Assembly: GCA_027623195.1 (NCBI GenBank) | Contig: JAQBUT010000004.1 | Coordinates: 1 to 64,000 of the forward strand | DNA length: 64,000 nucleotides | Reading direction: 5' to 3' | From: Chloroflexota bacterium | Lineage (GTDB): Bacteria; Chloroflexota; Dehalococcoidia; Lucifugimonadales; JADFKI01 | In this document: positions 1 through 25,036 of the stretch, piece after piece | How the letters are laid out: the number at the start of each line of letters is the position of its first letter | How positions within the stretch are numbered: the first letter of the stretch is position 1 | The notes under the pieces: model-generated | Databases searched by the model: none | What the model saw: the letters and a program-made list of their open reading frames with translations, nothing else | What the model was told of the DNA's origin: nothing | Position numbers and translations under genes: made by a program

Positions 1-125
1 AGAGAGCTCGCCAATTCAGCCGATTCTCTCCACTAAGTTTTCTGTCCCACTTCGCTGAATGACAACAGCAAGACGCCACGGACGGCGACGCGGTCGAAGT
101 AGGGCCGGGCACCTACGCAGATGAG

Positions 126-3100: not shown

Positions 3101-3137
3101 TGAATATTGGGTATACCTGAATACCACCGGCAATTAA
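126..3137 (+). CDS. Large surface/secreted protein: right-handed parallel beta-helix, carboxypeptidase-regulatory-like domain and FG-GAP/VCBS repeats; 5' end appears truncated
   Basis: Beta-helix repeats (V.GN.I...DDGI), GKVVD..G..V...VT...GTTDSNGDFSI module, multiple D-F-N-G-D-G..D-I/L motifs. The frame is open from 63 and contains DGDAVEVGPGTY upstream of the called GTG. Confidence 0.8.
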   Translation: MAPNVGMVVKSGVTLIGAGQDVTIIDGAAQGPPAFTAHGVIDMAPNAAVISLTVENGARRSIRSTSTPVFIADVHTLGARDAVKIDQFGGSTHAGDIVITGNHFVEGVELDSDFPGRLIFSGNTVTTESFQSEGGVSLCCAFMGGAFVVGNAITNTEDGLFFEHDGNLEEQGDPGFPFAIVSRNSILGTDDDGIDIRGQYLGGLEVSDNFIRSSDNGDFLVCCEFTGQVAVMRNVVISGSQEVEICCNGSFDVVASGNLLQRTRSFTIKAFPCCAGGGEQVNVTVSKNEVLDGGGILVEDAAGGIVLVSDNFVDAGFDVGIEMDLVENAQVSVVGNTITNMDDNGMEFDRMSGSDLVVDSNISSLNSSLGIDSFGSANSVIYSGNTLSGNGEGGLLLRDPAAVVDNNLFERNGMEPILLDSNRTPSAGYGAKFQGSDVTFTNNVVIDNGGSGVLIDGGNANLGTRNSAGQNVFQGNGSFDPTQHFNIRNDTTNLIIARGNAFDNVTAPLIDSLDILDDEEGVALGLILGPVDFNDFDIGGSNETVPDTTLVGKVVDLDGTGVASSTVTAINGSTGTTDSNGDFSISGVSTLIGDLRVSASVDIGGKPHVGISKFKSANPGGDTDVGEFTVTPQITFASPFTGNVGGSLPSGITAGDWDGGSDLDLVITVQNSDLVAVLTGGGDGSFNAKLSVVVGDLPKSVLAIDFNGDSFDDLVTFDALADQVSLLLNDTTGVFTVSEAIAVGIYPTSGAVADFNGDGFRDIAVVNSQNTGFVLDPNTRENTTPKGDITVLLGNDAGSFDAVPTTFPTDGFIPSSIVTADFDEDGELDLAVLHPHLNSEFGSNRSIAVLPGDGAGNFGAPTQTAIGTFVRPIILTADVNNSSSTDIVLSNMVLIGDGAGSFEIKPFAASTLDNTMVSEDFNGDGIVDIVTSIRGMGLLAYIGDGDGNYLETTARSAIGFDSGFAMAKGDFNNDELTDLVVVRSVNNSNRTPEYWVYLNTTGN

Positions 3138-3253
3138 TTTTGAAGATGAGCGCTGCCTGTCGAGTGCTCGCAGGATTGAGAGGCTCAGGGCGATGTGCCC
3201 AAGAAAATATAGGCGAGGCTAATACAGCGTTGGAGTGAATGGTTATCTAGTCG

Positions 3254-3328
3254 TGGGGGGGCGACTGGATTCGAACCAGCGGCATTCACGTTCCGACCGT
3301 GGCGTGCTACCGACTGCGCTACGCCCCG
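3254..3328 (-). pseudogene. Degenerate tRNA-Pro(CGG)
   Basis: Reverse complement CGGGGCG-TA-GCGC-AGTCGGTA-GCAC-G-CCACG-GTCGGAA-CGTGA-ATGCC-GCTGG-TTCGAAT-CCAGT-CGCCCCC-CCA. Cloverleaf with CGG anticodon, but mismatches in the D, anticodon and acceptor stems. Confidence 0.8.
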
Positions 3329-3367
3329 ACTAAAATGCCCGATGTCAAAGTTTTGATACTCTAATGA

Positions 3368-3406
3368 TGAGTTCAGTGTACCGAACGTGGCGCGCTACCG
3401 ACTGCA
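3368..3406. repeat. att-like site copy 1 (tRNA-Pro D-arm/anticodon fragment plus non-tRNA arm)
   Basis: tgagttcagtgtaccgaacgtggcgcgctaccgactgca; 35/39 identical to 16601-16639. The reverse complement contains GCAGTCGGTAGCGCGCCACGTTCGG. Confidence 0.85.
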
Positions 3407-3639
3407 ATTGAGTAATGCGACAAATTTCATTTCAGTAAACGGAACTGGATTTCAAAAGTTCTATCTACTGTCCCCTCTCCCCATCATGAACTGTTTCCTC
3501 CATTCAGGGGCAGACAGCCCGCTCCAATTATATCAAGTACCATTCCCTCGGTCGAGTTCGGCAACAGGCCCAGCTGACGGTCTACAGCCTTGCCTACTGG
3601 CGGTTAATCGACTCTAAGACTGGTCAGACCTTATGAATC

Positions 3640-5700
3640 TTAGCCGTGGTCTCCCACCGGTTCCGGCGTGGGGGCTGGTAACGCGCTACGGACTGCACGA
3701 GTGGCGTTCTCGCCTATATCGGCGGCGGCCTGCATGGCTCCATCCGCCGCAATGGAAGCTGCCTCATCCTCCGCAACGCCCAGCGACTCCGCAGCATCTT
3801 TGACCGCGGCCACAGCGTCTAAAACGGCATCGCCAAGATCCATGCCTACCTCGTCGGCGACCTGAGTTGCGCCGTAACCAACGCCCCAAATCAGGTCTTC
3901 GGGTTCCGAAGAGGCCTTGCTCAGCGCTTCGATAACACCTTCTAAGGCAGCCCTCGCAGTGCTGCGCCGATTCCCGGCGATCTTGTCCAGCTCGTGGTAG
4001 GCTCCTCTGGAAACATTTCCAGCGACGTTCTCACCCTGGTTTTCAGTTACACGTTGTTCCTGGAGGGATGCCAGAAGTCCTTGGGTGACCCGTCTTGCCA
4101 CGTCGCCGACTGCGTGCTCTCCGACCACAGCCGCCTTGACGGCAGTACGGGCGATTGTGGCGAACTGATAGGCTGTAACGCCCAACGCTACGTCCACACC
4201 CGGAATATGCCTGAGGTAGCCGTACGGAAATTGAGTTACGAAACGAAGGCCAGGAACGGAGCTGATTCCCCGCGTCATCTGCTGGGATGGCGTAAATAGT
4301 TCAGTTATCACCTCGGACCGGTTGACCTCGCCCTCCTCAGACACAAGCGCCAGCATGTTTAGCGTCAGCATGCCCATCACGAAGGCCCCGACAAAAAGGA
4401 AGTCAAATCCCGACAGAAGTACCGTAAGCGACGTTGCGCCTCCGCTCTCGGGGTTCAGCCCGAAGGACAGGGTCATACCCCTGGATTGCACAAAGTCGGC
4501 TAGCCAGCCCCCAAACAGTGGACTCAACCCGGCGCCAAGACTCGTGGCCAGTGATGCGACGGCCAGATAGGCGGTGGCCTCGCCCTTGGGTGCGAGCTTG
4601 TACCCGATGGTGTTTACGGTGAGGTTAAGCCCTGCGGTGGCCACTCCTGAAAAGACGTGCAGCGCGATGATAATTGGAATGGTCAGGATGTGGGACTCGG
4701 GCATAGTAGTGAAGACCCAGCCCAGTATCACCAGCAGGTACAGAGATGTTGACAATGACATCACAGCCTTGCTGCCGAACCGATCTACGTAGGGTCCCCA
4801 CACTCTCATGAATATGGCGTTGAACACCTGGCTGGTAACGGCCAGGGCCATAACGGCGGAGACCGGATATCCCAACTGCACCAGCATGTAAACGGCAAAG
4901 AAGGGAGTAGCCAAGTTCGAGGCGAAAGCCCACGTGAATAGGAATCGGAGGAGCCTTCGGAAGTTGCTGTTACCCAGTGGGGCGGATAGCATGTCGCGCA
5001 AGGACGGGCGTTGACCTGTCACCAGTGCCATGGCAGGCTCGGGCATTCTTGACATGAACCAGGGGTCCCCTAGCCCGAAGATGATTGCGGCCGGAAGCAG
5101 GATTAGTGTGTAGCCGATTACCTGATGCTCAGAAGCCGCGAAGCCGCGCCAAAGGTCGATAAATACGGCGCCAGCAAGCCCGAACAGAATGGCAGCCAAC
5201 GTTGAATACGATAGTCTCTGGGCGTGAAATCGGCCCAGGATGTCCGGTGGCACCAGGTCCTTGACCCAGCCAAACCACGCGCAGTTGCACACGCCCGCGA
5301 GGGCGGCACGTACTGCCAGAAGACCAATGAGGGTGAACACCGCTGATAGACTGGGCACAGGAAGAATGACGGGAATCAGGGCTATGGGCACCCAAAGGGA
5401 CTGTGCAGGAAGCCAGGCCAGCACTGAGATTACTTTGCGCATCCGCAGGCGCTCTACCAGCAGGATGGTGGGAATCTGGATAGGCTGCATTAAGAACGGG
5501 ATTGCGGCCAGAATACCGATATGAAGGCTGTTGGCGCCCAGCGCCAGCGCAAAGGCGGCCAGAAGGCCGCTGGTAGTCACGCTGTACAGGGCGTTAGCCA
5601 TGATGCCCTCCCAGGTCATCATACGCAAGCCTTGGCTGACCTCTTGATCGGAGAGGATAGGTTTCGGCCCGAGCCAAGAGTAAAACCTGGCCTTAATCAC
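3640..5700 (-). CDS. MFS transporter with a long Ala-rich soluble C-terminal extension
   Basis: About 12 hydrophobic segments and motif-A-like WGPYVDRFGSK, followed by about 200 aa of hydrophilic Ala/Gly-rich tail. Confidence 0.8.
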   Translation of the reverse strand: MIKARFYSWLGPKPILSDQEVSQGLRMMTWEGIMANALYSVTTSGLLAAFALALGANSLHIGILAAIPFLMQPIQIPTILLVERLRMRKVISVLAWLPAQSLWVPIALIPVILPVPSLSAVFTLIGLLAVRAALAGVCNCAWFGWVKDLVPPDILGRFHAQRLSYSTLAAILFGLAGAVFIDLWRGFAASEHQVIGYTLILLPAAIIFGLGDPWFMSRMPEPAMALVTGQRPSLRDMLSAPLGNSNFRRLLRFLFTWAFASNLATPFFAVYMLVQLGYPVSAVMALAVTSQVFNAIFMRVWGPYVDRFGSKAVMSLSTSLYLLVILGWVFTTMPESHILTIPIIIALHVFSGVATAGLNLTVNTIGYKLAPKGEATAYLAVASLATSLGAGLSPLFGGWLADFVQSRGMTLSFGLNPESGGATSLTVLLSGFDFLFVGAFVMGMLTLNMLALVSEEGEVNRSEVITELFTPSQQMTRGISSVPGLRFVTQFPYGYLRHIPGVDVALGVTAYQFATIARTAVKAAVVGEHAVGDVARRVTQGLLASLQEQRVTENQGENVAGNVSRGAYHELDKIAGNRRSTARAALEGVIEALSKASSEPEDLIWGVGYGATQVADEVGMDLGDAVLDAVAAVKDAAESLGVAEDEAASIAADGAMQAAADIGENATRAVRSALPAPTPEPVGDHG

Positions 5701-5771
5701 TTTGGCGAGCCAGTTCCGTGCACGACGAACTGCGTGGGGCTAACTAGACGTTGCCCATCCAGCCAATTATA

Positions 5772-6143
5772 ACTGACATTTCCCAGTTGAAATACAGTGC
5801 TTTCATAAACGCACGATACCGCGATGGCACGACTGTACGGCTGATTGTCGCCGTTGGCAATTGCCATCCCAAATGCTACGTTTAGCCTCATATTGCAATT
5901 TTGCAGCTTCAAACCACCCACAACCGCGCTAAAGCATCTCTTTCAAGCCATACTTCCCTAAAAGGTTACACACCTCGCCCAAGGCGAACTTGGAATGAGC
6001 ACGATTCCCCTTGCGGAAGAGTCTTGCTATCCAGGAATGATAGGAAGATTGCCTATCATTTCCATCATCTCCTGGAACATTTCCCTGCCGAGGTGATGGT
6101 CGGCAGGCTGGAACACAAGCTTTCTGGTATGGCACACCAGTCG
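5772..6143 (-). mobile_element. IS1380-family remnant (transposase C-terminus and right end)
   Basis: 6143-6027 translates RLVCHTRKLVFQPADHHLGREMFQEMMEMIGNLPIIPG*, resembling the RLVRHARRLVFQLAE C-terminus of IS1380 transposases. A terminal-like GGGAAATGTCAG lies near 5773-5784. Confidence 0.6.
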
Positions 6144-6241
6144 ATATTTAGTGTGCCTAGACAATTTTGAACGGGCAAATATTCACACTCGGTCCATGCA
6201 TTTCCGTTCGAGGAAACTTGCAGAGCCTGAGCTTACTTCGG

Positions 6242-6294
6242 AAAAGATGACTCTAGCCTGGCCGAACCCGGAAAGCGGGCTAGAGTCATCTTTT
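6242..6294. terminator. Intrinsic terminator hairpin (bidirectional)
   Basis: aaaagatgactctagcc...ggctagagtcatctttt inverted repeat just after the 6312 stop. Confidence 0.8.
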
Positions 6295-6311
6295 TACCGC
6301 TGATGCCCGAA

Positions 6312-6734
6312 TTAGGACTCCTCTTCGTCGAAGTCGTCCTTTTCCACATCATTGTCTTCCAGATCTTCATCGTAAAGATCCTCTTCCTCGTCATACATGC
6401 GGTTAACGCGACTGCCAATTCGGACGTCACGCCCAAATCTCTGAGACTCCCTGGCCTTTCGCTCCTTGCCCTTACCTAGGCGGGCGACTCGACTGTTCTT
6501 CTGAGGCGTTTCGTCTTCGTTTTCTTGCATTCTTGCCATAGTATTATCCTGACCCACTAAATCCATTACCGTAGCCGTTAACAGCGGGTAGTCGTCTGCT
6601 AATCTTTCCACATTCTCGTCGTCACCGACTTCCAGGTGAAAACCGCATTGGAGGCAGTTTGAGTAATTCCCATAGCTGTCCCAGTGCTTTTGTAGGGCCC
6701 CGCCGCATCGTGGACATGCTTCTATGAAAACCAT
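6312..6734 (-). CDS. Small zinc-ribbon protein with acidic C-terminus
   Basis: MVFIEACPRCGG...CLQCG (CxxC..CxxC) and a D/E-rich tail. ATG 6734 is preferred over 6884. Confidence 0.65.
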   Translation of the reverse strand: MVFIEACPRCGGALQKHWDSYGNYSNCLQCGFHLEVGDDENVERLADDYPLLTATVMDLVGQDNTMARMQENEDETPQKNSRVARLGKGKERKARESQRFGRDVRIGSRVNRMYDEEEDLYDEDLEDNDVEKDDFDEEES

Positions 6735-6907
6735 GCCCTCACCAGTCCTTTCCCTGGTGGCTCGGACCGCACCAAACCTTGGTCCCAAACTAGAACTGTC
6801 CTTCGATCCTCTTGAGAGAGGGCCTGCCTGTCCAGGTAATGCTGTTGTGCGCCAATTCATCTGTGCAGGCAGGTTCTCCATCATGTCAATTCTTCGCCGA
6901 TGGGCTT

Positions 6908-8929
6908 CTAATCATGTATTCCGGCGTTAACCAATTCCCGTCCCGGAATTAATAGGCCGGCGTCGTTTGAGGATTCTCCAACTTCAGAGTTACGCCGTTC
7001 GATGCCTAATCGTTCCTCGGCTGTCTTGAGAATGGCGCCAAGCATTTGCGAATAGTTCATATTGTTACTGTTTGACATTTTGGCCAGGTGTCCGTCCCAG
7101 CACCAGCCGGGGTTAGGATTGGCCTCCAGCAGCCTGGGCAGGCCCTTGGCGTCGAGGCGCCAGTCAAAGCGGACATAGTCTCGGCACTCAAGTCTCTCGA
7201 ATAATTCCGTGCTCCAACTAACCAGGTCGTTCTCAGTCGCCTCTGGTAGCTCCGCCCTAATCGACTGAAGCTGCCAGTATGGCGAAGTGGGATCCCATTT
7301 TGCTTCATAGCCGCATATCTTGGGTAGGTCGATTGGCAGAGATGAGTAGTCCTCCTCCGCGATGGGCAGCACAATCAGGTTGCCCTTTGGGTTTCCGATC
7401 ATGCCTAGTGTCAGGTCTTTTCCAGTCAGGAATTCCTCGACCAGAATTGGCCTTTCATCACCAATGACATGACGTACGTCGGAGATTGCGTCGATTAGCT
7501 GATCGGCGGTATAGGCCACGCTTTTTGCCGTAATGCCGATGCTTGAATCTCCCATGTTAGGCTTGACGATTACTGGGAAATCAAATGGTATTTCGAAAGT
7601 GGAGTCTTCTGGTCGTACGAATATAGCCGAAGGCACTGGAATTCCCATCTCTTTGGCTATGCCGCGGACTAATGACTTGTCGTAGCAGTAAGCGAGGCAT
7701 TGGGGACCGCCACCTGAGTATGGAATACCCAGCATTTCCAATATGACAGGCACATGCAGTTCGTGACGAGGGTCGTTGTTGTAGCCCTCATCGCACAGGT
7801 TTAGGACATAGTCGACTTTACCTTTCAGAAGGGTGAGGTCACGAATAAGGGTATCGTGATTGCTCAGGTACGTAAACTGGTAGCCATTCAGGTCTCTCAA
7901 CGCAAACTTCATCTGGTCGATCGTATAGAAATCATCCGTATCGAAGACTCTCAGAGGCTTCAGCGGATCTTCTTTGCTGGGGTCCCCGGTGACAACCGCC
8001 ACGTGGGTGAGCGTTTGTTTTTTGGCGGAGCTACGAACAGGCGTCCACTGCTTCCTGACCTGGGCAGTAGCAATGATGCGGCGCTCCATCATGCCTAAGT
8101 CCTGGTTGCGTTGCGAGTCCGGTGAGAAGTCGCCTTTGAACTCAACATTTGTGAAACCCGCCTCGGTCAGAACATCGTTCAAAGTTTCGCGAGAATAGAG
8201 CCTTTCGGCGTAAAACTGATCGGCCACTATCCCCTTCTCCACGTCGGTTACGACTTCCCTGGATACCAGGCGGTTTCCATCTGCAGATAGAGAGCGCTCC
8301 CTGCAAACAAAGAGCTTGCTGTTTATCCACTCCCATGACCGCGCCTGGAAGTTATTCCTAAGGTATTCGCCATCCGCAATATCAACAAGAATCCTGCCCC
8401 ACGGCATAAGCACACGGAAAACCTCGCGCAGAACCTTCAAGTCATCCTGCGGCGTGTCGAAGTAACCAAAGCTGTTTCCCATGATAAGGACGGTTGCGAA
8501 TCTATCTGATTGAAATGGCAGTTTGCGAGCGTCACCGACCCTGAATTTAACATCCAGGTTCTCGGACTTCGCCCGCTGCTTGGCTTTCCCGATAAGGTAA
8601 TGAGACCTGTCGATTCCTTCAACGTTGTGAAACCCTCTGCGGGCCAACTCCAGGGTATGCCGTCCCTGTCCACAACAGAGGTCCAGAACCCTGTCATCTG
8701 CCCCAAGGTCAAGAATTTCGTTCAGAAGCGTTACTTCGTCGCTGGTGATACGGCTGTCTTCAACTACGTCGCCATCCGTTTTGAGGTACATCGAGTTGAA
8801 TATTCTCGACCACCAGTCAGAAGCCACGTGTTCTTCCAAATTGGATACGGGGCCAAGAGTTCGAGCCTGGCGCTTGCGAGTGACCTTGCTGCCGTCACCC
8901 TTCGATGTTCGCTTCTTCTGCTCTACCAC
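6908..8929 (-). CDS. Class I SAM methyltransferase fused to a D-Ala-D-Ala-ligase-like ATP-grasp domain
   Basis: VLDLCCGQGRH SAM motif; FPVIVKP..DSSIGI, LVEEFLTG, RFDWR and LEANPNPG ATP-grasp motifs. Confidence 0.9.
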   Translation of the reverse strand: MVEQKKRTSKGDGSKVTRKRQARTLGPVSNLEEHVASDWWSRIFNSMYLKTDGDVVEDSRITSDEVTLLNEILDLGADDRVLDLCCGQGRHTLELARRGFHNVEGIDRSHYLIGKAKQRAKSENLDVKFRVGDARKLPFQSDRFATVLIMGNSFGYFDTPQDDLKVLREVFRVLMPWGRILVDIADGEYLRNNFQARSWEWINSKLFVCRERSLSADGNRLVSREVVTDVEKGIVADQFYAERLYSRETLNDVLTEAGFTNVEFKGDFSPDSQRNQDLGMMERRIIATAQVRKQWTPVRSSAKKQTLTHVAVVTGDPSKEDPLKPLRVFDTDDFYTIDQMKFALRDLNGYQFTYLSNHDTLIRDLTLLKGKVDYVLNLCDEGYNNDPRHELHVPVILEMLGIPYSGGGPQCLAYCYDKSLVRGIAKEMGIPVPSAIFVRPEDSTFEIPFDFPVIVKPNMGDSSIGITAKSVAYTADQLIDAISDVRHVIGDERPILVEEFLTGKDLTLGMIGNPKGNLIVLPIAEEDYSSLPIDLPKICGYEAKWDPTSPYWQLQSIRAELPEATENDLVSWSTELFERLECRDYVRFDWRLDAKGLPRLLEANPNPGWCWDGHLAKMSNSNNMNYSQMLGAILKTAEERLGIERRNSEVGESSNDAGLLIPGRELVNAGIHD

Positions 8930-9231
8930 CTGTTATCTCCTCAACATATGAATATTTTGGTTCGTCATTGAAATGCTTTGTCTAGAATAGCCATCCACAA
9001 GTGCGTTGACCTGGTACCGGTCCCCCTTGGCTGATTGAATATGATCATCTCTAAAACTCTTTACTCTCCCAGATTTCATTAATCCGATTAGCAACTTAAA
9101 CAGCTACAGTTCGTTTATCACTGCCGCCCGTTTTGAAACCGGCTTTCCCCAATATATTTCGTCTGCAACACCTGGAAAAACGGGCCTTAAAATTCAAATA
9201 TTCCCTGATGTAACAGAGAATATTTGGGCGC

Positions 9232-9266
9232 AAAAAGCCCTCCCTAAACATTCATTAAGGGAGGGT
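9232..9266 (-). terminator. Terminator-like hairpin in the leader upstream of the methyltransferase/ATP-grasp gene
   Basis: Minus strand ccctccct-12 nt-agggaggg followed by cttttt. Confidence 0.55.
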
Positions 9267-9504
9267 AATTCGCAGCAAATATCGCCACAGGTCATCACCT
9301 GATTTATTTTAAACCGCTCTATGTAAAATTACTAAGTCATACGCGAAGAATTATAGCTCGTGAAGTATAATTCCAATAGAGTAATTTCACCCAATTTCAT
9401 AAATCACTTTGTCACATTTCCCTAGGTATGAGCCGTGAGCAGCTTCATTTTTAACCTAATTCTCTAACGGGTGTTGTAGTCCCTCTTTTTGAAAGGGAGC
9501 TTTA

Positions 9505-11523
9505 TTGAAAGCTAGACCAGTATCTATTGCAGACCTAAAGCGATTTCACTTCGTGGGTGACCCGCAGGTGAGTCCTAATGGGGAGCACGTCGCGTTTACG
9601 GTCAAGGTTATTGATGCTCAGAAGAACCGCTACCTTACGAACCTGTGGATGGCTGATATCAGCACAGGTGGGGTAAGGCAATTTACTTTTGGGGACGCGG
9701 ACGACAGCTCGCCTCGTTGGTCGCCCGACGGGAATAGCATTGCGTTCCTTCGAAGGCAGGCCGACCAGAGTCAGATGTGGATTATTCCCTACAAGGGCGG
9801 CGAGGCGAGGCAAATCACTCGCCTGCCTGAGGGATCCGTCGGACCGTCGGACTGGTCACCCGACAGCCGAAACATCGCATTTACTTTCCGGCCAACTCAT
9901 GCGGATTGGACGAAGAGCGCCGTAGGCGAGCGGTCAAAGTCGGGACAGGCTAACCCTCCTCGTGTGATTACCAGGCTGCTGTACAGGTCCGAAGGCAGTG
10001 GATTCCTGGATTGCCGCAGGCAGGTCTGGAAGTGCGATGTAGTCAACGCTGCCGCTACGCAGGTCACTTTCGCAGACTATGACGTAGACGGCCCGGTCTG
10101 GTCTCCAGACGGCCAGTACCTGGCATTCATCGCAGATCGTGATGACAAGTACGAGACCTCGCCCTATGCGCGGGAAATATGGATAACTTCCCCGGATGGG
10201 AGGGAGAGCAAAATGCTGTCCGCTTCCATGGGCTTCGCGTCCGGCCTATCATGGTCGCCTGATTGTAAACGGGTCGCATACACAGGACATGCCTTCGAAG
10301 ATGATCCGTGGAAGCCAAGACACAACCGTATTTGGATCGTACAGGTCGATGGTGGAGGCTCCCAATGCCTTACCCAATCGCTGGATAGGACCGTGGGCAA
10401 TGCCACCCTTGGCGACGTACGTGAGTACGGCAACAACCGTCCAGTCTGGTCTGCTGAGGGTGACAGACTGTTCTTTACCGTCAGCGACAGCGGCAACTGT
10501 CATCTTTACACCGTGGGGTTAGATGGCCGCCAATGTGTCCCGCTGACCAAGGGCAACCTGGACATTTCCGGATTTACCGTGGATGCGCAGTCAGAAAACA
10601 TCGCGCTACTGGTGGGAACAGCTAACCAGATGGCGGAGTTGTATGTGGCTAACATCGGCATCCCGGAGCCCGGAGCTGTCAATCTGAGACAAATCAGCCA
10701 TTTCAACGACGAAGTTACGGCCGAATTACTCATACAAGACCCTGAGGAAGTTCGCTTTGAGAGCGGCGACGGCACACCAATTCAAGGCTGGTTGCTCAAA
10801 CCGCCGGACTTCGACCCTTCCAATGCGTACCCGCTGGTGCTGTCCATCCACGGCGGCCCTCACAACCAGTACGGGAACGTGTTCTTCCTTGAACTGCGGG
10901 TCCTAGCCGCCCAGGGCTACGTGGTGCTCTACTGCAATCCCAGGGGAAGCGAGGGTTACTCGGAGGAATTCTCCGCATGCATCAGGGGAAACTGGGGTGG
11001 CGTCGACTACGATGACCTTATTGCCGCATCCGATTTCGCGGCTGGACTGGATTGGGTTGATGCAGACCGAATGGCCGTGATAGGGGGAAGTTACGGCGGT
11101 TTTATGGTCAACTGGATAATCGGGCATGACAACCGATTCAGGTGCGCTGTCACCGAAAGAACAGTCTCCAACATGCACGCCGACTTCGGCACAGTTGATC
11201 TCCCCGAATATGCTGACGGCGCCGGCTATTGGGAAGGCAATGCCTGGGACAACCCGGACGCGCTCTGGCAGCAGTCGCCCTTAAAGTACGTAGCGAATAT
11301 GCACACGCCTTTGCTGATAATGCACAGCGAAGGCGATTTGCGATGCCCCATACACCACGCCGAGCAGCTTTTCGCGGCGTTGCGGCACCTGAGACGAGAG
11401 GTTGTATTTGTGAGATACCCCATAGAGACTGATCACGGGATGTCTCGCAATGGACCTCCGGATTTGAGAGAAGACCGACTGAATCGCCTAGTCGATTGGT
11501 TGAAGGCACATCTCAAAGACTGA
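9505..11523 (+). CDS. S9 family peptidase (acylaminoacyl/dipeptidyl peptidase)
   Basis: WSPDG propeller repeats, IHGGP, GGSYGG nucleophile, DLRC and H catalytic residues. Confidence 0.95.
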   Translation: MKARPVSIADLKRFHFVGDPQVSPNGEHVAFTVKVIDAQKNRYLTNLWMADISTGGVRQFTFGDADDSSPRWSPDGNSIAFLRRQADQSQMWIIPYKGGEARQITRLPEGSVGPSDWSPDSRNIAFTFRPTHADWTKSAVGERSKSGQANPPRVITRLLYRSEGSGFLDCRRQVWKCDVVNAAATQVTFADYDVDGPVWSPDGQYLAFIADRDDKYETSPYAREIWITSPDGRESKMLSASMGFASGLSWSPDCKRVAYTGHAFEDDPWKPRHNRIWIVQVDGGGSQCLTQSLDRTVGNATLGDVREYGNNRPVWSAEGDRLFFTVSDSGNCHLYTVGLDGRQCVPLTKGNLDISGFTVDAQSENIALLVGTANQMAELYVANIGIPEPGAVNLRQISHFNDEVTAELLIQDPEEVRFESGDGTPIQGWLLKPPDFDPSNAYPLVLSIHGGPHNQYGNVFFLELRVLAAQGYVVLYCNPRGSEGYSEEFSACIRGNWGGVDYDDLIAASDFAAGLDWVDADRMAVIGGSYGGFMVNWIIGHDNRFRCAVTERTVSNMHADFGTVDLPEYADGAGYWEGNAWDNPDALWQQSPLKYVANMHTPLLIMHSEGDLRCPIHHAEQLFAALRHLRREVVFVRYPIETDHGMSRNGPPDLREDRLNRLVDWLKAHLKD

Positions 11524-11537
11524 GTGCGTTTGCGCGG

Positions 11538-11683
11538 CCTGCTCTGCGTTACCATCATAAGCAACTTATTCCGAACCCATAGCCACTGCACTTCGAATAT
11601 AAGGACAGTGAGACCCAACTAACGCGACAGGACCAGCCTGTCTCTTCTGTAGGCCGAGCTAGGAAGTTCTCCACATAGGATTG
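11538..11683. repeat. 146-bp direct repeat, copy 1
   Basis: 142/146 identical to 14488-14633 by manual alignment. Confidence 0.95.
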
Positions 11684-11887
11684 CAGCGACAGCTATTACT
11701 AACGTTGCCACACCAGTAATTATGGTGGAACGTCTGACTAATCTCACGGCGACCTCGTTCTCTTGAATTATGGAGAAGACTACACCCTGAAATCTATGAA
11801 CACTTGTAGAGCCTGTAGCGCCATAGCTCATTTCGGACGAATCTGGCATCCCGCGCGGAACCGTAAGCGAGAGTTGGACGCACGGCC

Positions 11888-13189
11888 TTAGCGTACAGTA
11901 AACAAGGCCTCATCATGAGTCACTCGGTGCCATGAACTGCCATCGGAAAATGTCCAGAAGGCGGCCGCATTCAGTTTCAGGTCAACACCAGTAGCAACGA
12001 GGCCAGTTTGAGTGAGAACCGCGTCCCGCATGAGGACTTCGCCAAATGACACTGGAATACGCTTCCATGTTGTGCCATCGGTGGACTCCCAAACGAACAC
12101 CGTGTCGTCATCGAGACTGCGGCCGAATGCGAACAGCTTGGCATCGTCGGTGACCACAATGTCCATGCGCGCCTCCTGGAGGGCTTCCGTAGGAATAACT
12201 TGAACCCAGACAATACCATCCTCCGAGACCCAAACTCCCGCAGCACGCCTGTCTCGATCGAATCCTACTGCCACGACCCCTTTCCCAAAACTCGTGAGTG
12301 AGGCTATTTCTGAATCTCCGAAGTCGACATCTAACTTAGTCCAGGACTGGCCTGACGGGGAGGCAAACATAACAGCGCCATTGTCTGACTTGCTGTAGTT
12401 GGCAGCAAGGAAACCTGCCTCAGTCGAGACGACGGCGCTCGGCTCATGTCCTCGGTCGTAGACCGGGGCGGGCTCGCCAACGGCCCACTCTCTAGGATTG
12501 GCGGCATACCAGAAGACGGAGTCGTTTCCATAGGTGGCACCGATGAGCGCGAGACTCGTTCCACTTGAGGCTAAGGCTGCGGGCTTCGCGGCGTCCTCGT
12601 TCTGCGTGCCGTCACCAAATGAAGCCACTCGCTGCCAACTGGTCCCGTCCTGTGACACCAAGGCGACTGCGGCTCCAGTTACACCGTCCTGGCCGACCAT
12701 GACGATTCCGAATTCGGTATAGGCCACATCGGCTACCTCTAAACCTGACAAAGATTCGGTCAGTGAGATTCGCGACCAGGTCGCTCCATCGATGGAGAGC
12801 CAGACGACAGCATTTCCAGCAGCGTCATCTCCCACTACAACGTAACCATCTGGAGTCTTTGTAATTGATTTTGGGCCATAATCGATTACACCGGCGAATA
12901 GGCCGAACTCCTCTTTCAAAAACGACGGGGTGCCATCGACCACGGCGCCGATAAACAGGACTCCCAGGACCAAAAGACCTGCGGTTCCCAGCGAGCGCAA
13001 GGCAAATGTGCGTGCGCGCCACGGTCGTTTGATAAGCAGCAGGATGAAAAACGAGAATGGCGTGACCGCGAATAGGGTCATTTTTCCGCTCTCTCGAAAA
13101 TCGTCGATGCCCAGGGATATGGCCAACATAGCAGGAACACTAGCCAGGAACCACGGGGCTAATTTCATTTTCCACAGTGCCTCGACCAA
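11888..13189 (-). CDS. Membrane-anchored beta-propeller protein with Asp-box/BNR-like repeats
   Basis: Three N-terminal TM segments, then repeated W.S.DG..W motifs. Confidence 0.7.
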   Translation of the reverse strand: MVEALWKMKLAPWFLASVPAMLAISLGIDDFRESGKMTLFAVTPFSFFILLLIKRPWRARTFALRSLGTAGLLVLGVLFIGAVVDGTPSFLKEEFGLFAGVIDYGPKSITKTPDGYVVVGDDAAGNAVVWLSIDGATWSRISLTESLSGLEVADVAYTEFGIVMVGQDGVTGAAVALVSQDGTSWQRVASFGDGTQNEDAAKPAALASSGTSLALIGATYGNDSVFWYAANPREWAVGEPAPVYDRGHEPSAVVSTEAGFLAANYSKSDNGAVMFASPSGQSWTKLDVDFGDSEIASLTSFGKGVVAVGFDRDRRAAGVWVSEDGIVWVQVIPTEALQEARMDIVVTDDAKLFAFGRSLDDDTVFVWESTDGTTWKRIPVSFGEVLMRDAVLTQTGLVATGVDLKLNAAAFWTFSDGSSWHRVTHDEALFTVR

Positions 13190-13204
13190 AGTAGATTTTG
13201 AATT

Positions 13205-13876
13205 TCAGCGTACATATTTTTGCAGCTTCGTAGACTTGAGCATCAGCACGACGCTGACCACCAAAGTCCAAGCCAGGAACAGAAAAACACCAATCCATGG
13301 CATCAGTAACGTTACTGATACTGCAACACCAACCCAACCAACCCAAAGTGGCAGCGCCCTGAAGCGAATGGCTAATACTGAAGTCGCCAAAGTCATCGCA
13401 ATCATTGGTGGCGTGAACAACCAGACGTAATTCCACTGGAGAAAGAATAGTGTCTTGGCTACCTGAGCGTCGGCGAGAGATACGGAATGGGTGGCAAGCT
13501 GAATGAGAATTGCGCCTAGCAGTACTCCAATCGACAGGAGTCCTCCGCCATATGCCACGGACATCAGCCACTCTACGTCACCTTCGGAAGCATGAAGATG
13601 CGCGCGTACGTATCCTAGGAACCAGAAAAATGATATTAGTCCTACCAACCCTATTAAGCTGCCTAGCTCAATCTGGTCACTCCGACTAATATAGAATTTT
13701 GCGATTTCCGTAGCGGGGCTACTGGTATCCAGAGTATCTCCGTAGTCCCCTGCCAAACCAAAGCCAATGAATATGAGAACCGCCGCTAGTAACCCGCTTC
13801 CAGCTCCCATCCACTTCCAGGCCGAGTCACTATCAACCAAGGCATTTCCCTCCGAAGAACTCTGTTGAACATACAA
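13205..13876 (-). CDS. Integral membrane protein (DUF4386-like)
   Basis: About 6 TM helices; LP.WVGW motif near the C-terminus. Confidence 0.6.
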   Translation of the reverse strand: MYVQQSSSEGNALVDSDSAWKWMGAGSGLLAAVLIFIGFGLAGDYGDTLDTSSPATEIAKFYISRSDQIELGSLIGLVGLISFFWFLGYVRAHLHASEGDVEWLMSVAYGGGLLSIGVLLGAILIQLATHSVSLADAQVAKTLFFLQWNYVWLFTPPMIAMTLATSVLAIRFRALPLWVGWVGVAVSVTLLMPWIGVFLFLAWTLVVSVVLMLKSTKLQKYVR

Positions 13877-14151
13877 ACTTTGAAAAGCGTAGGCGGGATT
13901 GTAGCAGCAGTTCGGAGAGCAAACAATCTAGCCTGAAACGCCGGTGAAAGAACGACGTGCAAGTGAGACCAGGTGATACCAAGATGGCTTGGTTATGATC
14001 GAAGAACCATGGTCAAGTATATTGGTGCTGGCTTAGGAGAGCCATACGTCATTGGGGTAATGTCTTAGTGGTTGACCCCGTGGATCCGTTTGATAGGAGG
14101 TCATACGATTTTTCGTCTACTCCTATGTGAGCATCACGAAAGGGAATTCTA

Positions 14152-14359
14152 GTGTTCAAGCATATACTACGGAATGTTATGTCAGTATCCGTGCGCGTGG
14201 ATGTAGGCGGGAGCGCAGCGGGCGTTGGCGGGCTAATGTGGATGGTCAAGGGCATTGTCATTCTCTCGGGCGGAGCGCAACCACTCTTCCTATTCGAGGG
14301 CGCACCACTGTTTTTCGGTGTGGGGCTTATCGGGATGTATTCTACGTTCGGAGCTGATC
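14152..14359 (+). pseudogene. Truncated membrane-protein gene fragment
   Basis: Hydrophobic GVGGLMWMVKGIVILSGG...LFFGVGLIGMY ends abruptly at the IS remnant. Confidence 0.4.
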
Positions 14360-14487
14360 CTGACCGCCGCCAATCTGCTCAAAGACGTGTACTACGATGT
14401 CAAGTTTGTAGATGGGCACAGAGCGATATCAACCGAGACCGAGGAGGTCGCCGCCTGACTCGTTTACACACCTATTGACGGAACCTC
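14360..14487 (+). mobile_element. IS256-family remnant (transposase C-terminus and right terminal repeat)
   Basis: LTAANLLKDVYYDVKFVDGH...EEVAA* followed by tttacacacctattgacggaacctc, resembling IS256-family right ends. Confidence 0.6.
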
Positions 14488-14633
14488 CCTGCTCTGCGTT
14501 ACCGTCATAAGCAACTTATTCCGAACCCATAGCCAGTGCACTTCGAAAATAAGGACAGTGAGATCCAACTAACGCGACAGGACCAGCCTGTCTCTTCTGT
14601 AGGCCGAGCTAGGAAGTTCTCCACATAGGATTG
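14488..14633. repeat. 146-bp direct repeat, copy 2
   Basis: 142/146 identical to 11538-11683; begins at the base after the putative IS end. Confidence 0.95.
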
Positions 14634-14919
14634 TTTTTGAATGCAAACCATGCTGCGAATGTTGCCGCTTCAGAATTCACGCCGCCAGCGCGACCTCAAT
14701 CCCGTGTTTTAGGCCGAGTTCGACCCTCCCCCGTCTCCACCAAGAACACTTGATCCTGCTTTTGTTGTCGCGACCTGAAAAACGGGCCTGAACGGTCTGA
14801 TCGAGCGTGAAAGCCAGTCGATGCACCCGCATACGCTGGGTAAACTCGCCGAGAACGGCTACAAAAAGAGAAACGCCCGTATATACTCATTGCCGCATAC
14901 GGAGGGAGACTCCCCCACT

Positions 14920-16458
14920 TTATAGGGTCCAGAAACTCCAGTTTTCTAGCAATTCAGATTCCAAACCTCCGAAGAGGTCCTCCACATAACTCACGTATTT
15001 CTGATATTTTTGCCATTCTTCTACTGACAAATTGCGATCCTGATATGCCTTAAGCATATCGGCTTCTGTGAACTTACCTTGGCCTAACTGTTTACTTTCA
15101 ATTATATGTTTCAGCCAGTTCTGTAATATCCTTAGTTCTTCTACTTTCCCTTCCTGGTCCAGTTCCGGCAGATCCGCACCCAGGTTCTGGACAGGGTGGC
15201 CGAAGTGGTCGCTCCCTGTAAGTAATCCATCATCGCTTAGACCAAGATCGTATACTTCCATGCCATTCTTGGGGGCCAATTTGGCCTCTGTTCCCGCTGG
15301 CATAGGGACCCAATCTCCCGTCGTATCGTCCTTGTATTCGAACGTCACAATTCCGCCATTTTCAGTGGCCTTGAGTTTCCCTATGGGGGATTGGGGTAGA
15401 TATTTATAAAATTTGTCTGCCTTGGCTGCGCTCTCGAAGTACATGAAGGACCTGTCACCCTCGTGAAAGAACTGACTCGGGACCCGATATTTATTTATCG
15501 GCGCGTATCTTTCGTATCCAGTCGGTGTGACGTGATATTCTGAATTTTCTATGTTCGGATCATCGTTGTCCGTCCTGAACTTCGCCTCGACGTTATTGAA
15601 TGGGATCCTTTGGATAGTTCTCTGTAACTCATCGCCGGACTGCTGCACCACGTGTGTCAGTTCATGGGCCAGTGTCTCCTGCCCTTCGCTACTTTCAGGC
15701 TTGTACTCTCCCTTGGCGAAGAAAATGTCCTGTCCAGTGGTGAAGGCGCGGGCGCTCATCGATTTGCTCAAGGCATCGGAATCTGAGCTGTCATGAACGG
15801 TCACTCCGCTGAAGTCCGCTCCGAATCCCTGCTCCATTCGGGTCCGAAGATTTTTGGGCAACCGCTTACCTTGACCCTGTGCACTTTCTAACGCGGATGA
15901 GGATTCCCGGCCAATCTCGCCGCCTTCCAAACCGATATCCGCAGACTCAGAAGCCACGCCGTCACGACGAAGCATTTGAATTTCTTCTTCCTCTTCCTGG
16001 CGCTGAATTTCCAGAGGCCGCATCTGCACTTCGTCTTCCTCTTGGCGCTGGGCAGAATCCCCGGACGAATTGACAATCTCTTTGGCTACACGGTCTGCTT
16101 CTTTTTCATATTGTTCTCCAACAGGTCCAACTTTCATCTTGCCCTGGATTTCGGTTGTCCTTAGCTGGCCAACGTGCTCGACGAGCCGTTGCACGTATCG
16201 ATTTCCATAGTCTCTTTGGATTTGCCGAACTAGATCCGCCTTCCGTTGTGCATACATAGGCGATGACATGCTTGGGTTGCTCAGCAGATCGACGTGCTGT
16301 CGGAATGCTTCCTCGCCAGAGCCCCTGAAATTCCCCCTGCCGATGAGGCCTAAGTTATCTGCCGGCGCGCGGGAGTTTGGCGAATTTATATGGCCCCGCT
16401 TTCCCTGATGCAGCGCTGGTTTTCGCCTGTCGTCTTTCTTATGGAATTTATCCGCCAT
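14920..16458 (-). CDS. DUF4157 (eCIS core domain) protein with unknown C-terminal domain
   Basis: LP..LR..ME..FGADFSGV.VH, ARAFTTG.DIFF..G.Y.P, LAHELTHVVQQ, QRQEEEE repeats and an IQR junction. ATG 16458 has a GGGGG RBS (alternative start 16545). Confidence 0.9.
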   Translation of the reverse strand: MADKFHKKDDRRKPALHQGKRGHINSPNSRAPADNLGLIGRGNFRGSGEEAFRQHVDLLSNPSMSSPMYAQRKADLVRQIQRDYGNRYVQRLVEHVGQLRTTEIQGKMKVGPVGEQYEKEADRVAKEIVNSSGDSAQRQEEDEVQMRPLEIQRQEEEEEIQMLRRDGVASESADIGLEGGEIGRESSSALESAQGQGKRLPKNLRTRMEQGFGADFSGVTVHDSSDSDALSKSMSARAFTTGQDIFFAKGEYKPESSEGQETLAHELTHVVQQSGDELQRTIQRIPFNNVEAKFRTDNDDPNIENSEYHVTPTGYERYAPINKYRVPSQFFHEGDRSFMYFESAAKADKFYKYLPQSPIGKLKATENGGIVTFEYKDDTTGDWVPMPAGTEAKLAPKNGMEVYDLGLSDDGLLTGSDHFGHPVQNLGADLPELDQEGKVEELRILQNWLKHIIESKQLGQGKFTEADMLKAYQDRNLSVEEWQKYQKYVSYVEDLFGGLESELLENWSFWTL

Positions 16459-16600
16459 AAAATCTACCCCCAAGTCAGTTGATTCCTCAGTCTTTACCTG
16501 AATGCCATCAGCCAAAACGTCTTTTTTGCGTCTTCCCAAATCCATGCAATGCTGCGGCAGCCTTCGCTTAACACTCGAAAGCGGGTCAGGATATGGGAGT

Positions 16601-16639
16601 TGAGCTCAGTGTCCCGAACGTGGCCCGCTACCGACCGCA
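16601..16639. repeat. att-like site copy 2
   Basis: tgagctcagtgtcccgaacgtggcccgctaccgaccgca; 35/39 to 3368-3406; 140 bp downstream of the recombinase stop. Confidence 0.85.
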
Positions 16640-16778
16640 GAACAAAGCGCAGCCAATACCGTAGCTGGACTTTTCCGAGTAAGCACTTTCCTTGAAACCC
16701 CTACCTCTGGGCAAGCTAGAGGTAATCTGCGAGCATGCCAATTCGCAAGCTTGCGTCGTAGCAGCATGATGACAATTT

Positions 16779-18260
16779 CTATAGCCGGAACTCAATTTCA
16801 GTACGATCATCCCTGTATATATACGCGGCTCTCAGGATTTTCTGCAGATGGGCTTTGGCGAGTCTTACTTCCATATCACCGAAGTCTTTTACGAATGTTT
16901 CGATGGCTGCCGGCGCTCTCTCCGCTGACGAAGACTTGCCCTCTTGCTCCTCCAGCCATTGGCCTAGCTCTCGTTGCTTATCTTCTAGTGCAGCCTTCTG
17001 ACCGCGTATGGACTCGTTTGCCTTGGCAAACTCTCCTTCATTGAGGACTTGCCGTTCGAGTAGACCAAGATGGGCCAGGAACTTGCCCTCGATATCTTTT
17101 AATCCCTTCTCGGCCTCCTCAAGTTCCTTACGCTTTCGGGATATGTCTCTCTTGCCGGCAGCCTCCATATGTTCGCGAACGATTTGGGGGTCCGAGAATT
17201 GCCCAAGGTACTCCAGGATCGCTGCTTCCAGCTTTGGCGCAGAGTGGCCGTTGTAATAGGCGCAGTCTGCCTTGGATTTCATGGCCCTTGTGCACCAGTA
17301 GTTGCGATATCGTTTGCCCTTTCTAATGGCCCCCACTTTACCTGCCATGGGCCCGCCGCAGTGACCGCATTTGATGATGCCGCTAAGGAGGTAATCGCTA
17401 GCGTGGGTCTTGCCTCGTGAGTTCTCCCGTCTATTGCCAATACGCTCCTGAAGTTTGTCCCATTCCTCCTGCTTGAGTATGGCAGGAAAGAAGCTCTCCA
17501 CCCGAACAATTTTTTGTGGAGGATTGCCTTTTCTCGGCTTCTTGCCATATGCAAGGGTACCCTTGAGGGCTTCGTTGTTCAGTATGCGCTGCACTGCAAA
17601 GGCTGCAAATGGACGGCCGTTTCTGGTCTTGTGCCCGGCGTCGGAGATACTGTCACCTATGGCCTTGTAACCAAGGTTTTCTTCTACGGCTAGTCGGTAC
17701 ATCTCCCTGACCGCTGGAGCCTCAACCGGATCAATCTCCCAGTGGAAGTCTTTCCCTTCGTAGATTTTCCTCAGGCCGAACGGAGCCCCGGCTACGTGGA
17801 CTCCCTTCGCAACTGCGCTGCTCATGTTAGACCTAACCCTTTCCGATGTCCGTTTGCTTTCTGCTCCTGCCATGCCTGCCTTAATAAGCAAAAGGAGCTC
17901 TTCGCGGATATCTTCGTCTGTGGTTTCAACAGAAACGCCGTGATCCTCTAGATCCCCGTAATGGCGGAGGATTTCTTTGGGGTTGCGACCGAACCTGTCC
18001 AGGAGCTGGACTACGACCACATCGGCGCCACCATGCATGACGAAGTCTACCATTTGCAAGTACTCTCGGCGGTCGTCCCCCCAACCGGAGACAACGTCTT
18101 GGAAGGTCCTGATGGGAGTGTAGTTGGGTGCGTCGCAATTCTGCAGATATAGTGTTTCCTGCGTCTCAAGGGAGGAGTGGCGTTGGCCCGTTTGGCCAGA
18201 GCTAGAAACTCGTCTGTAACAAACGGCGCGCTTAGCGCCTGTGAGGACCGGAGTAGCCAT
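16779..18260 (-). CDS. Large serine recombinase (integrase)
   Basis: YRRVSS catalytic Ser, DRFGR, recombinase domain, LLSGIIKCGHCG...YWC...C zinc ribbon, coiled coil. Confidence 0.95.
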   Translation of the reverse strand: MATPVLTGAKRAVCYRRVSSSGQTGQRHSSLETQETLYLQNCDAPNYTPIRTFQDVVSGWGDDRREYLQMVDFVMHGGADVVVVQLLDRFGRNPKEILRHYGDLEDHGVSVETTDEDIREELLLLIKAGMAGAESKRTSERVRSNMSSAVAKGVHVAGAPFGLRKIYEGKDFHWEIDPVEAPAVREMYRLAVEENLGYKAIGDSISDAGHKTRNGRPFAAFAVQRILNNEALKGTLAYGKKPRKGNPPQKIVRVESFFPAILKQEEWDKLQERIGNRRENSRGKTHASDYLLSGIIKCGHCGGPMAGKVGAIRKGKRYRNYWCTRAMKSKADCAYYNGHSAPKLEAAILEYLGQFSDPQIVREHMEAAGKRDISRKRKELEEAEKGLKDIEGKFLAHLGLLERQVLNEGEFAKANESIRGQKAALEDKQRELGQWLEEQEGKSSSAERAPAAIETFVKDFGDMEVRLAKAHLQKILRAAYIYRDDRTEIEFRL

Positions 18261-18299
18261 GGTTCACCTCGCGATTACAAGATGACACAATTATGTCAC

Positions 18300-18345
18300 G
18301 CTCAGTACGTGGAGGCCGCTGGTTCGAATCCAGTCGTCCCGACCA
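18300..18345 (+). repeat. attR-like site: gctcagt arm joined to the tRNA-Pro 3' half
   Basis: ACGTGGAGGCCGCTGGTTCGAATCCAGTCGTCCCGACCA (18307-18345: anticodon 3' stem, T arm, CCA) with no 5' half; 40 bp upstream of the integrase ATG. Confidence 0.85.
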
Positions 18346-18553
18346 GTTTTCCAATTTCTACTTTCGATTCCGCATTCATCAGTTCCTTTATGGCTTCTTT
18401 GTCTTGACGCCCCACAGATTAGCAATTTCACTGACGTATTGACGAAACCGTTGCGCCGAGGTAGCCTACCCGTATGTCCCAATACAGGGCCCATCTCAAG
18501 GCTAAGACTCGCACGAAAATGCTGCATTTCGTTTTTATAGTTAGGAGCTTGCG

Positions 18554-24647: not shown

Positions 24648-24960
24648 AATGCTGTGAAGGGGAGTAGTACCGAAGGTACCGGCAAGAGAGAGTCGGCGAT
24701 GGTGGGAATCCGACGCCAGGGCCTTGGAGAACTCGCCCCAGAGCACCTGACCTGAAGGGTAGTAGGAGTAATCATGTCGCAGAACATATCCATGGCACAG
24801 TGGATAATTTGTTCTGCGCAATCTGTACTCCCCCCAAACTACATATAGGGTCGGGCGGTTGGCTCCGTTATAGCCTCTGAGAGGTTCGCCGGTGGCGAGC
24901 AAATTGGGTGGTACCACGAGACACAACGTCCCGTCCCTTTACTTGGACGGGATTTTTTTA
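24648..24960 (+). ncRNA. T-box riboswitch (Leu, CUC specifier) controlling the ilv-leu operon
   Basis: AGTA, AGAGA and GGTGGGAA boxes; GAA-CTC specifier; CCGTTA; AATTGGGTGGTACCACG T-box; terminator tcccgtcc/ggacggga plus T run. Confidence 0.93.
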
Positions 24961-25036
24961 TTGCATTTTTTTCGCTGACGGAACAGGTGTTCCGCAGTAT
25001 CAATCGAAGCCACGATTAAGTTGGAGGACTACTGAA

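Follow-up and report, generated by a model that had tools for sequence, protein, structure and literature searches.

Phage-type large serine integrases (those of phiC31 and Bxb1, and SprA of SPbeta) recombine over a 2-bp core within a quasi-palindromic attP that lies beside the integrase gene, and the orientation of integration is fixed by a non-palindromic core. Disruption of a tRNA gene of the host, with replacement by the incoming element, has been described for tyrosine integrases: according to the accessible portions of the respective reports, actinobacteriophages such as Fionnbharth and others break a host tRNA gene and carry a spare (PMC10865867), and in integrative and conjugative elements (ICEs) of Pasteurellaceae inserted at tRNA-Leu (ICEPmu1/ICEMh1 type) an intact copy located at the element's end takes the place of the disrupted tRNA (PMC6028734). 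Here we analyze a 64-kb stretch of DNA (positions 1 to 64,000 of contig JAQBUT010000004.1, termed C11; hereafter "the window") from a Dehalococcoidia bacterium (GCA_027623195.1, termed G000; a short-read metagenome-assembled genome, MAG, of 3.0 Mb in 65 contigs, 87% complete), in which a gene for a large serine recombinase (LSR) lies among several sites derived from tRNA-Pro(CGG). We propose, with a probability of about 0.78, that LSRs of this family split the tRNA-Pro gene of the host and that the element brings along a spare copy behind its attP.

According to this model, the LSR would recombine attP, in which the quasi-palindromic arms P and P' surround a 2-bp AC core, with tRNA-Pro at positions 38-39, and would thereby split the gene in two. 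The element would carry a complete, promoterless tRNA-Pro 25–62 nt behind P', which after integration would be placed downstream of the host promoter and of the stranded 5' half, replace the broken gene and supply the host, while the LSR gene would end up beside P at the other end of the element, in divergent orientation. The replacement tRNA would constitute a perfect attB, into which later elements could insert, giving rise to stacked attL units and nested islands. In G000 the attL and the working replacement would reside on another contig, C13, and the attR would correspond to site 4 of the window, while sites 2+1 and 3 would be eroded remnants of attL and replacement tRNA, i.e. an older stack or cassette later interrupted by cargo and lying inverted inside the island. 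The features of the window on which the model is based are as follows:

3254..3328, minus strand: site 1, a decayed replacement tRNA-Pro(CGG) in a secondary cassette (ARAGORN: tRNA-Pro(cgg), 3255-3328)
3329..3377, minus strand: P' arm of attP and the spacer joining site 2 to site 1 (49 nt, a length equal to that on C13)
3378..3405, minus strand: site 2, an eroded tRNA 5' half (positions 12-39) with the AC core at its end; an attL-type junction
3682..3696, minus strand: a fifth remnant, a 15-nt D-arm fragment with 1 mismatch, on the strand shared with sites 1-3
16601..16638, minus strand: site 3, an eroded attL with tRNA positions 12-39, the AC core and ~10 nt of the P' arm, without a tRNA behind it
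16779..18260, minus strand: the LSR, an open frame of 493 aa with Resolvase, Recombinase and Zn ribbon domains, between sites 3 and 4
18283..18306, plus strand: P arm of attP, directly upstream of the LSR start and divergent from it (family alignment)
18307..18345, plus strand: site 4, the attR and right end of the island, with the AC core and the native tRNA-Pro(CGG) 3' half (positions 38-76)

The first-pass annotation, made from the letters of the window alone, had reported four tRNA-Pro-derived sites, whose positions and strands we confirmed. Site 1 scores 44.6 bits with broken pairs, compared to 70.1 bits for the intact copy on C13 (Rfam tRNA model), and its best fold is not a cloverleaf. 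Sites 2 and 3 indeed form a 39-nt direct repeat (3368-3406 and 16601-16639; 35/39 identical, i.e. 90%; E-value 4e-6 versus the 3.0-Mb genome), with the LSR outside it, between sites 3 and 4; in both, the tRNA part stops at position 12 and the P' part after ten bases. Sites 2+1 together are an 89% copy, over 148 nt, of the attL + tRNA cassette of C13. The 15-nt D-arm motif occurs four times in the window versus 0.25 expected, and none of 100 shuffles reached this number. Site 4 has the opposite orientation to site 1. Since sites 2 and 3 each represent the attL type (5' half, core and P'), no attL/attR pair surrounds the 13.2 kb between them. This speaks against the suggestion that this segment is mobilized between its direct repeats, and no joint that would remove or invert it was found in the assembled contigs of 4 runs (among them X1, and X2 and X4 with contigs of a second study), which, however, drop rare variants. 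A region at 3470-3586 that adjoins site 2 is a 105–117-nt repeat common to contigs C19 and C23, with a weak motif resembling the end of ssrA at its start; a degenerate ssrA-like end near 3470 failed a search with 3 mismatches and was not counted.

The LSR possesses the catalytic residues S19 and D88-R89..R92 (DRFGR motif) and the zinc-ribbon cysteines C298/301/323/333, all invariant across the 64 sequences aligned. This alignment gave 128 loci, 48 from genomes and, from metagenomes, the best 80 of 140; 115 of the 128 had enough upstream sequence for scoring; some of the loci are near-duplicates and do not represent independent events. At identities of at least 55%, a tRNA-Pro 3' half is found just upstream of the LSR, pointing away from it, in 53 of 54 loci, compared to 0/54 in the opposite-strand control; the fraction falls to 6/10 at 50–55%, 6/19 at 45–50% and 0/32 below 45% identity. 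A quick tree of 80 sequences places the window LSR in a well-supported set of 12, all of which target tRNA-Pro, and requires 5 changes of the targeting label versus 26 in shuffles. The shared core is AC in 56/65 attR sites and AG in 6, mostly with TGG-type halves, and 16 of 24 positions of the P arm form an inverted repeat with the P' arm of C13. Such inverted symmetry of P and P' about AC is characteristic of a serine-integrase attP, here with its 2-bp core at tRNA positions 38-39. The family comparison supports tRNA-Pro(CGG) as the target of the LSR family, as the first-pass annotation had anticipated for the recombinase. The same annotation had placed all junctions at the anticodon loop and pointed to the dyad symmetry of its stem; they turn out to lie at the 3' edge of the loop, at positions 38-39, about 3.5 nt off the dyad axis.

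All 120 database proteins among the matches listed are at least 54% identical to the LSR, and the named homologs belong to Chloroflexota/Dehalococcoidia, SAR202 among them; in 40 related genomes no LSR exceeded about 37% identity. The best match in the PDB is SprA/YokA (SPbeta), no annotated phage integrase exceeded ~28% identity among the best 8 of 486 records (all below 60%), and one homolog from a viral contig is 41% identical and lacks a tRNA-Pro site. The 8 kb downstream of the LSRs contain no conserved accessory or partner gene, and a sigma-70 scan found no LSR promoter within the P arm. Sister groups of LSRs at 40–48% identity (L085, L088, L090, L091, L094, L164 and L187; L080, L084, L087 and L089) retain the layout of the P arm with other targets, one of them apparently inside a protein-kinase-like coding stretch and another a common non-tRNA motif. 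In one genome (G043:C3:192800-242700; L250, L232-L234) about eight separate fragments comprising only the C-terminal 40–120 residues of an LSR are scattered through the island, as if each cargo module ended in an LSR tail.

These data also bear on the idea that the LSR integrates in either orientation by means of the anticodon-stem dyad and mobilizes the 13.2-kb segment flanked by the direct repeats as one unit, which we regard as unlikely. Its attraction is that sites 2 and 3 are a genuine 39-nt repeat with the same cut points, suggestive of a common origin, that both orientations occur in the window, and likewise in G043, whose island contains an inverted 3' half, and that the read depth in X1 halves left of about 3261-3542. 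However, the AC core is non-palindromic and off the stem axis, and the symmetry resides in the arms of attP rather than in the tRNA; both repeats are of the attL type and provide no pair of substrates, site 3 lacking in addition the distal P' arm; the 4 runs contain no joint at the cores; and homologs of at least 50% identity that were examined have no such site just after the LSR stop. One X2 contig joins 3344 to 16598, but with 19 other letters in between, and reads as the stacked attL unit of a relative. Thus, with regard to the tandem accretion of cargo in possibly both orientations put forward in the first-pass annotation, material did accumulate, the cargo not having been found in the 30 relatives searched, but the use of both orientations is unsupported.

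The reading preferred here, i.e. splitting of the tRNA gene and its replacement by a carried copy, requires the other half of the native gene, and the search of the genome for an intact tRNA-Pro(CGG) recommended by the first-pass annotation led to contig C13, beyond the window. There, a full tRNA-Pro 5' half is followed by AC, then by 49 nt unrelated to the tRNA, and finally by an intact tRNA-Pro(CGG) in its entire length. The genes upstream of this 5' half are those found upstream of the intact gene in three relatives (G001, G002 and G003), and the ilv operon, located 6 kb past site 4, immediately follows the intact gene in two others (G024 and G006). Moreover, at acceptor-stem position 6 the C13 half pairs with site 4, while the replacement tRNA has another pair. 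Because the flanking genes match those of relatives with the intact gene and the acceptor letters pair, the C13 5' half and site 4 are best explained as the two halves of the native gene, and the C13 junction is the likely attL that matches site 4. Within 400 nt around the C13 cassette, the sole promoter-like match was found before the native 5' half. No intact tRNA-Pro(CGG) other than the C13 copy is present in the 87%-complete assembly, which also has a TGG isoacceptor that might cover CCG codons. C13 and C11 terminate in opposite ends of one multicopy insertion sequence (IS), which is compatible with a join that would place the gene halves in direct orientation, and the two contigs are presumably linked in this way. 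The respective features of the window are:

1..67, unstranded: one end of the multicopy IS, where the contig breaks off (C13 terminates in the other end)
24908..26731, plus strand: ilvB-type gene, which in G024 and G006 adjoins the intact tRNA-Pro(CGG) and marks site 4 as the native 3' half

The IS breaks 19 contig ends (11 of the type at the start of the window and 8 of the other), and target duplications of 8–9 bp pair only 2 of 8 ends. In run X2, one contig extends for 9.5 kb beyond position 68 in other sequence, hence the IS copy at 1-67 may be recent. The gene order at the tRNA-Pro locus differs between G000 (C19, C13) and the same-genus G001 (L194), which suggests a larger rearrangement near the island. 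Elsewhere in G000 (C16:71664-71695) a 3' fragment of tRNA-Pro(GGG) lies 9 kb from the intact gene, i.e. the ordinary pattern of a displaced fragment, indicating a separate island.

The arrangement seen on C13 recurs in other genomes. From 41 distinct rows with a tRNA 5' half that does not go on as a tRNA, 7 chance matches and site 1 were subtracted, leaving 33 distinct junctions of the attL type, 25 of which are followed within about 25–62 nt by a whole tRNA or by another attL, in stacks of up to three units. Among the 8 exceptions, 4 are at a contig end or gap, 1 has the tRNA 1.3 kb away, and 3 have none (site 3, C63 and L108). Tandem attL units are present in 8 of 40 LSR-bearing genomes (the remainder of the 48 genome loci appear to repeat the same genomes), and among 400 other genomes of the class the strict tandem-unit pattern was found in 3, the control giving 0 matches. 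Continuous elements are available in L111, with attL, tRNA, LSR and attR within 4.1 kb, and in G042:C1 (42 kb), while G043 carries three stacked attL and a tRNA, with an attR and LSR at a distance of 39 kb and another attR at 66 kb; its TGG tRNA gene is occupied by a second element. In all three genomic contexts attL and attR are in direct orientation around the element; in G000 the two ends are on separate contigs. In the stacks of G004 and G478 the oldest 5' halves are decaying. The replacement sequence differs from the native half in G000, G473, G456 and at the TGG locus of G043, therefore the copy is imported. Eroded attL + tRNA cassettes are also found off the native gene, in G458, G470 (230 kb from the intact gene), G474, G041, G042 and twice in G025, with 5' halves trimmed to varied lengths, as decay would give; inverted remnants occur on C13 as well. 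In G025 (L193:18755-18910) there is also a tRNA-Pro(CGG) with a ~70-nt insertion in the D-loop and a truncated 3' end, and the intact copies of this genome belong to secondary attL cassettes. Sequence comparison thus directly supports the target, the core, the symmetry of the arms, the replacement copy, the stacks and the native origin of both halves, while the activity of the enzyme, read-through transcription of the replacement tRNA, the order of events, the physical link of C13 to C11 and the way in which sites 1-3 became inverted are inferred.

It could be argued that the units composed of a half, an arm and a tRNA are tandem duplications on the host side, selected after the break, and that the spare tRNA was never carried by the element. 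In agreement with this, the native half is identical to the copy in G043 (CGG locus) and G044, two units of G043 repeat exactly, and some genomes with an attR show only an intact gene. Nevertheless, a lethal break would be too sudden to be rescued time and again, many genera show the same order with differing arms and spacers, the copy is unlike the native half in several genomes, and P' mirrors, in inverted form, the P arm beside the LSR, so that we consider host-side duplication quite improbable as a general explanation. A further possibility, to which we assign very little weight, is that sites 3 and 4 act as an inverted attL/attR switch that flips the 1.7-kb LSR segment. An inverted attL and attR with like cores do flank only the LSR gene, and in L187 the LSR stop is closely followed by an attL stack on the same strand; however, this arrangement is not conserved in close homologs, and the L187 LSR is a 40% relative with a non-tRNA target. 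Moreover, the contigs of both studies are in one orientation without a flip joint, C13 already contains the native 5' half, and the P' arm of site 3 is truncated. Finally, the mixed orientation could be an artefact of assembly or binning of a fragmented short-read MAG, since no single contig covers all four sites, but this is highly improbable and mis-assembly of the tRNA-Pro sites is unlikely, because contigs of the second study reproduce both the junction of sites 1-2 with the gene to their left (X2, 68-3505; X4, 1170-3505) and the succession of site 3, LSR and site 4 (X2, 14711-18345; X4, 16606-20000), and tile the cargo at even depth.

Several observations weigh against splitting and replacement of tRNA-Pro by the LSR family. 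In G001, a member of the same genus, the downstream neighbor of the intact tRNA is not the ilv operon, and C13 and C11 are separate contigs whose IS ends have no target-site duplication in common. The LSR of the window itself has drifted, with 11 changes at 188 conserved columns versus a median of 4.5, and may be weak or dead. A directionality factor or a transfer gene was not identified. Five genomes (G041:C6, G451, G452, G447 and G475) have an attR and an LSR but an intact native tRNA, with attL absent there, which would require an added step, either collapse between the two 5' halves of 39 nt or cross-excision. Within the 100 kb of G043 that were examined, three attL stand against two attR, and two of the units do not differ from each other; stacks may therefore partly be tandem duplications. 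Neither an attP junction nor a circle, excision or inversion joint was seen in the contigs of the 4 runs, including the excised-circle and inverted junctions that the first-pass annotation had proposed to look for, and pattern scans of IMG/VR for attL + tRNA and for the attP junction gave one match each, both of them by chance.

As for the orientation of sites 1-3, sites 2+1 and 3 are most likely passengers within the island, and there is about an even chance that they were inverted by the activity of IS or of ssrA-type islands rather than by backwards integration. The cargo that separates them contains the following features:

3640..16545, unstranded: cargo genes for an MFS transporter, a methyltransferase/ATP-grasp fusion, an S9 peptidase, a BNR-like protein, an eCIS-core-domain protein and unknowns
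11538..14633, plus strand: a 2.9-kb module between 146-nt direct repeats (97% identical), at half depth in X1
14716..14743, plus strand: an exact copy of the 3' end of ssrA (tmRNA), the boundary in the cargo of a second, ssrA-type island system

Except for tRNA sequences and short repeats, none of this cargo was found in the 30 relatives, and no phage, conjugation or replication family was detected in it, nor in the 85 open reading frames (ORFs) of the G043 and G042 islands, which contain metabolic, regulatory and IS genes instead. The module at 11538-14633 is probably a polymorphic insertion, independent of the tRNA-Pro sites; the leftmost gene is also at half depth in X1 (left of about 3261-3542), and the boundaries of cargo polymorphism are other than the tRNA-Pro cores. 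The tRNA-Pro remnants of G000 lie opposite copies of the ssrA 3' end (window 14716-14743, C13 and C63), with IS ends nearby.

Further copies of the ssrA 3' end, far from ssrA and in or near tRNA-Pro islands, are located at C13:1080-1101 and 1181-1206 and at C63:2034-2062 and 4593-4617, and ssrA copies are found inside the islands of G041, G042, G043, G473 and G004 too; the two island systems appear to be interleaved. The LSR that adjoins ssrA on C11 is ~25% identical to the tRNA-Pro LSR. Among individual cargo segments, ~365 nt between ORFs (5775-6140) are 71–73% identical to stretches in G025 (twice) and G002 and may represent a small gene or a regulatory element of the island; the ORF at 6908-8929 encodes a class I methyltransferase fused to an ATP-grasp domain similar to D-Ala-D-Ala ligase, which falls below every curated ligase cut-off; and the 541-aa protein with the eCIS core domain (14920-16545) is encoded directly behind site 3.

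A serine integrase joins unlike sites over 2 bp and therefore, in contrast to most tyrosine integrases that target tRNAs, cannot rebuild a tRNA gene cut in its middle; the way round it taken by the LSR family would be to ship a whole spare gene behind attP and to borrow the promoter of the host. This would extend tRNA-dependent integration beyond the phages and ICEs with tyrosine integrases, and it predicts that islands grow by nesting rather than side by side, so that island finders that seek a displaced tRNA fragment beside a restored gene may misplace the boundaries here. The inverted arrangement in the window is probably mostly debris, and the family matters more: it offers dozens of LSRs for which attB, attP and core can be inferred precisely, at a conserved gene in a bacterial class that is hard to engineer. 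More tentatively, and with somewhat less than an even chance in our view, the system could function as a self-renewing landing pad, in which each element plants a working attB under the host promoter and nesting is unlimited. The attL stack would then record the arrivals, while excision between an attL and an attR that is not its partner would reshuffle cargo and move orphan attL + tRNA cassettes as secondary hotspots, sites 1-3 being such seeds. If so, the landing pad would be a main route by which Dehalococcoidia accumulate cargo, interleaved with the system of ssrA islands.

The window LSR resembles the integrases of phiC31, Bxb1 and SPbeta (SprA) in its domain order, catalytic motifs, 2-bp core and the placement of attP. 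As in tRNA-dependent lysogeny, its family would break a host tRNA gene whose isotype the element encodes. However, as far as the accessible part of the actinobacteriophage report describes them, those phages use a tyrosine integrase with a core of ~8–10 bp, compared to a serine enzyme and a 2-bp core here; the tRNA of Fionnbharth has its own strong promoter and overlaps another gene, whereas that of the LSR family abuts attP and is apparently promoterless; and unlike in the actinophages, the spare of the LSR family is near-identical to its target, regenerates attB and builds stacks, in the company of no phage genes (PMC10865867). Judged by sequence, the LSR system would work like tRNA-dependent lysogeny without being a member of it (serine enzyme, no phage). 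The Pasteurellaceae ICEs also have their crossover in the anticodon-loop region, but differ, in the sections of the report at hand, by a XerD-family tyrosine integrase, a core of 10–13 nt, conjugative transfer and a copy located after parA, and stacked attL units are not described for them there (PMC6028734).

The first-pass annotation had drawn a parallel with the ssrA islands of Dehalococcoides and with tycheposons, which does not hold in the decisive respect: those systems keep the target gene whole and have only a partial repeat at their distal end, while in the present case the gene is split and replaced by a carried full copy. The available part of the report on the ssrA islands (DsiB/DsiA) indicates the same host class, an LSR, a structured-RNA target, accretion and a lack of transfer genes, but these islands target the T-loop of ssrA, leaving the gene whole with a 20-bp 3' repeat, rather than splitting tRNA-Pro at 38-39; they possess a six-gene dsiB/dsiA/recF/parB/mom module, while no conserved module was found in the tRNA-Pro family; and the 3' end of dsiB overlaps attL, while the LSR studied here is divergent from attR (PMC3146451). 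Tycheposons, as the consulted portion of their description has it, are likewise cargo elements of tRNA hotspots that leave partial tRNAs and broken integrases in islands, but in 910 of 937 tycheposons the recombinase is of the tyrosine type, many carry replication genes, replication or packaging genes being frequent, and partial tRNA copies lie between elements, older ones being pushed along, whereas LSR islands nest in the carried full copy (10.1101/2020.12.28.424599). In the LSR islands the enzyme is a serine recombinase, no replication genes were found in the islands scanned, and the gene is not restored at attL. The LSR islands thus belong neither to the ssrA islands nor to the tycheposons. 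The main text of a large LSR survey, which classed targets by protein-coding genes, does not contain the word "tRNA" (PMC10083194), and the accessible text of two further papers holds nothing specific to this layout (PMC12884075 and PMC13313380); a serine integrase with a replacement tRNA adjacent to attP was not found in the full-text literature, which included few subscription papers and no supplements, and an entry in an island database is possible. Disruption and replacement of a tRNA gene is thus known from phages and ICEs with tyrosine integrases, and the version described here, in which a serine recombinase would regenerate its own target, appears to be new.

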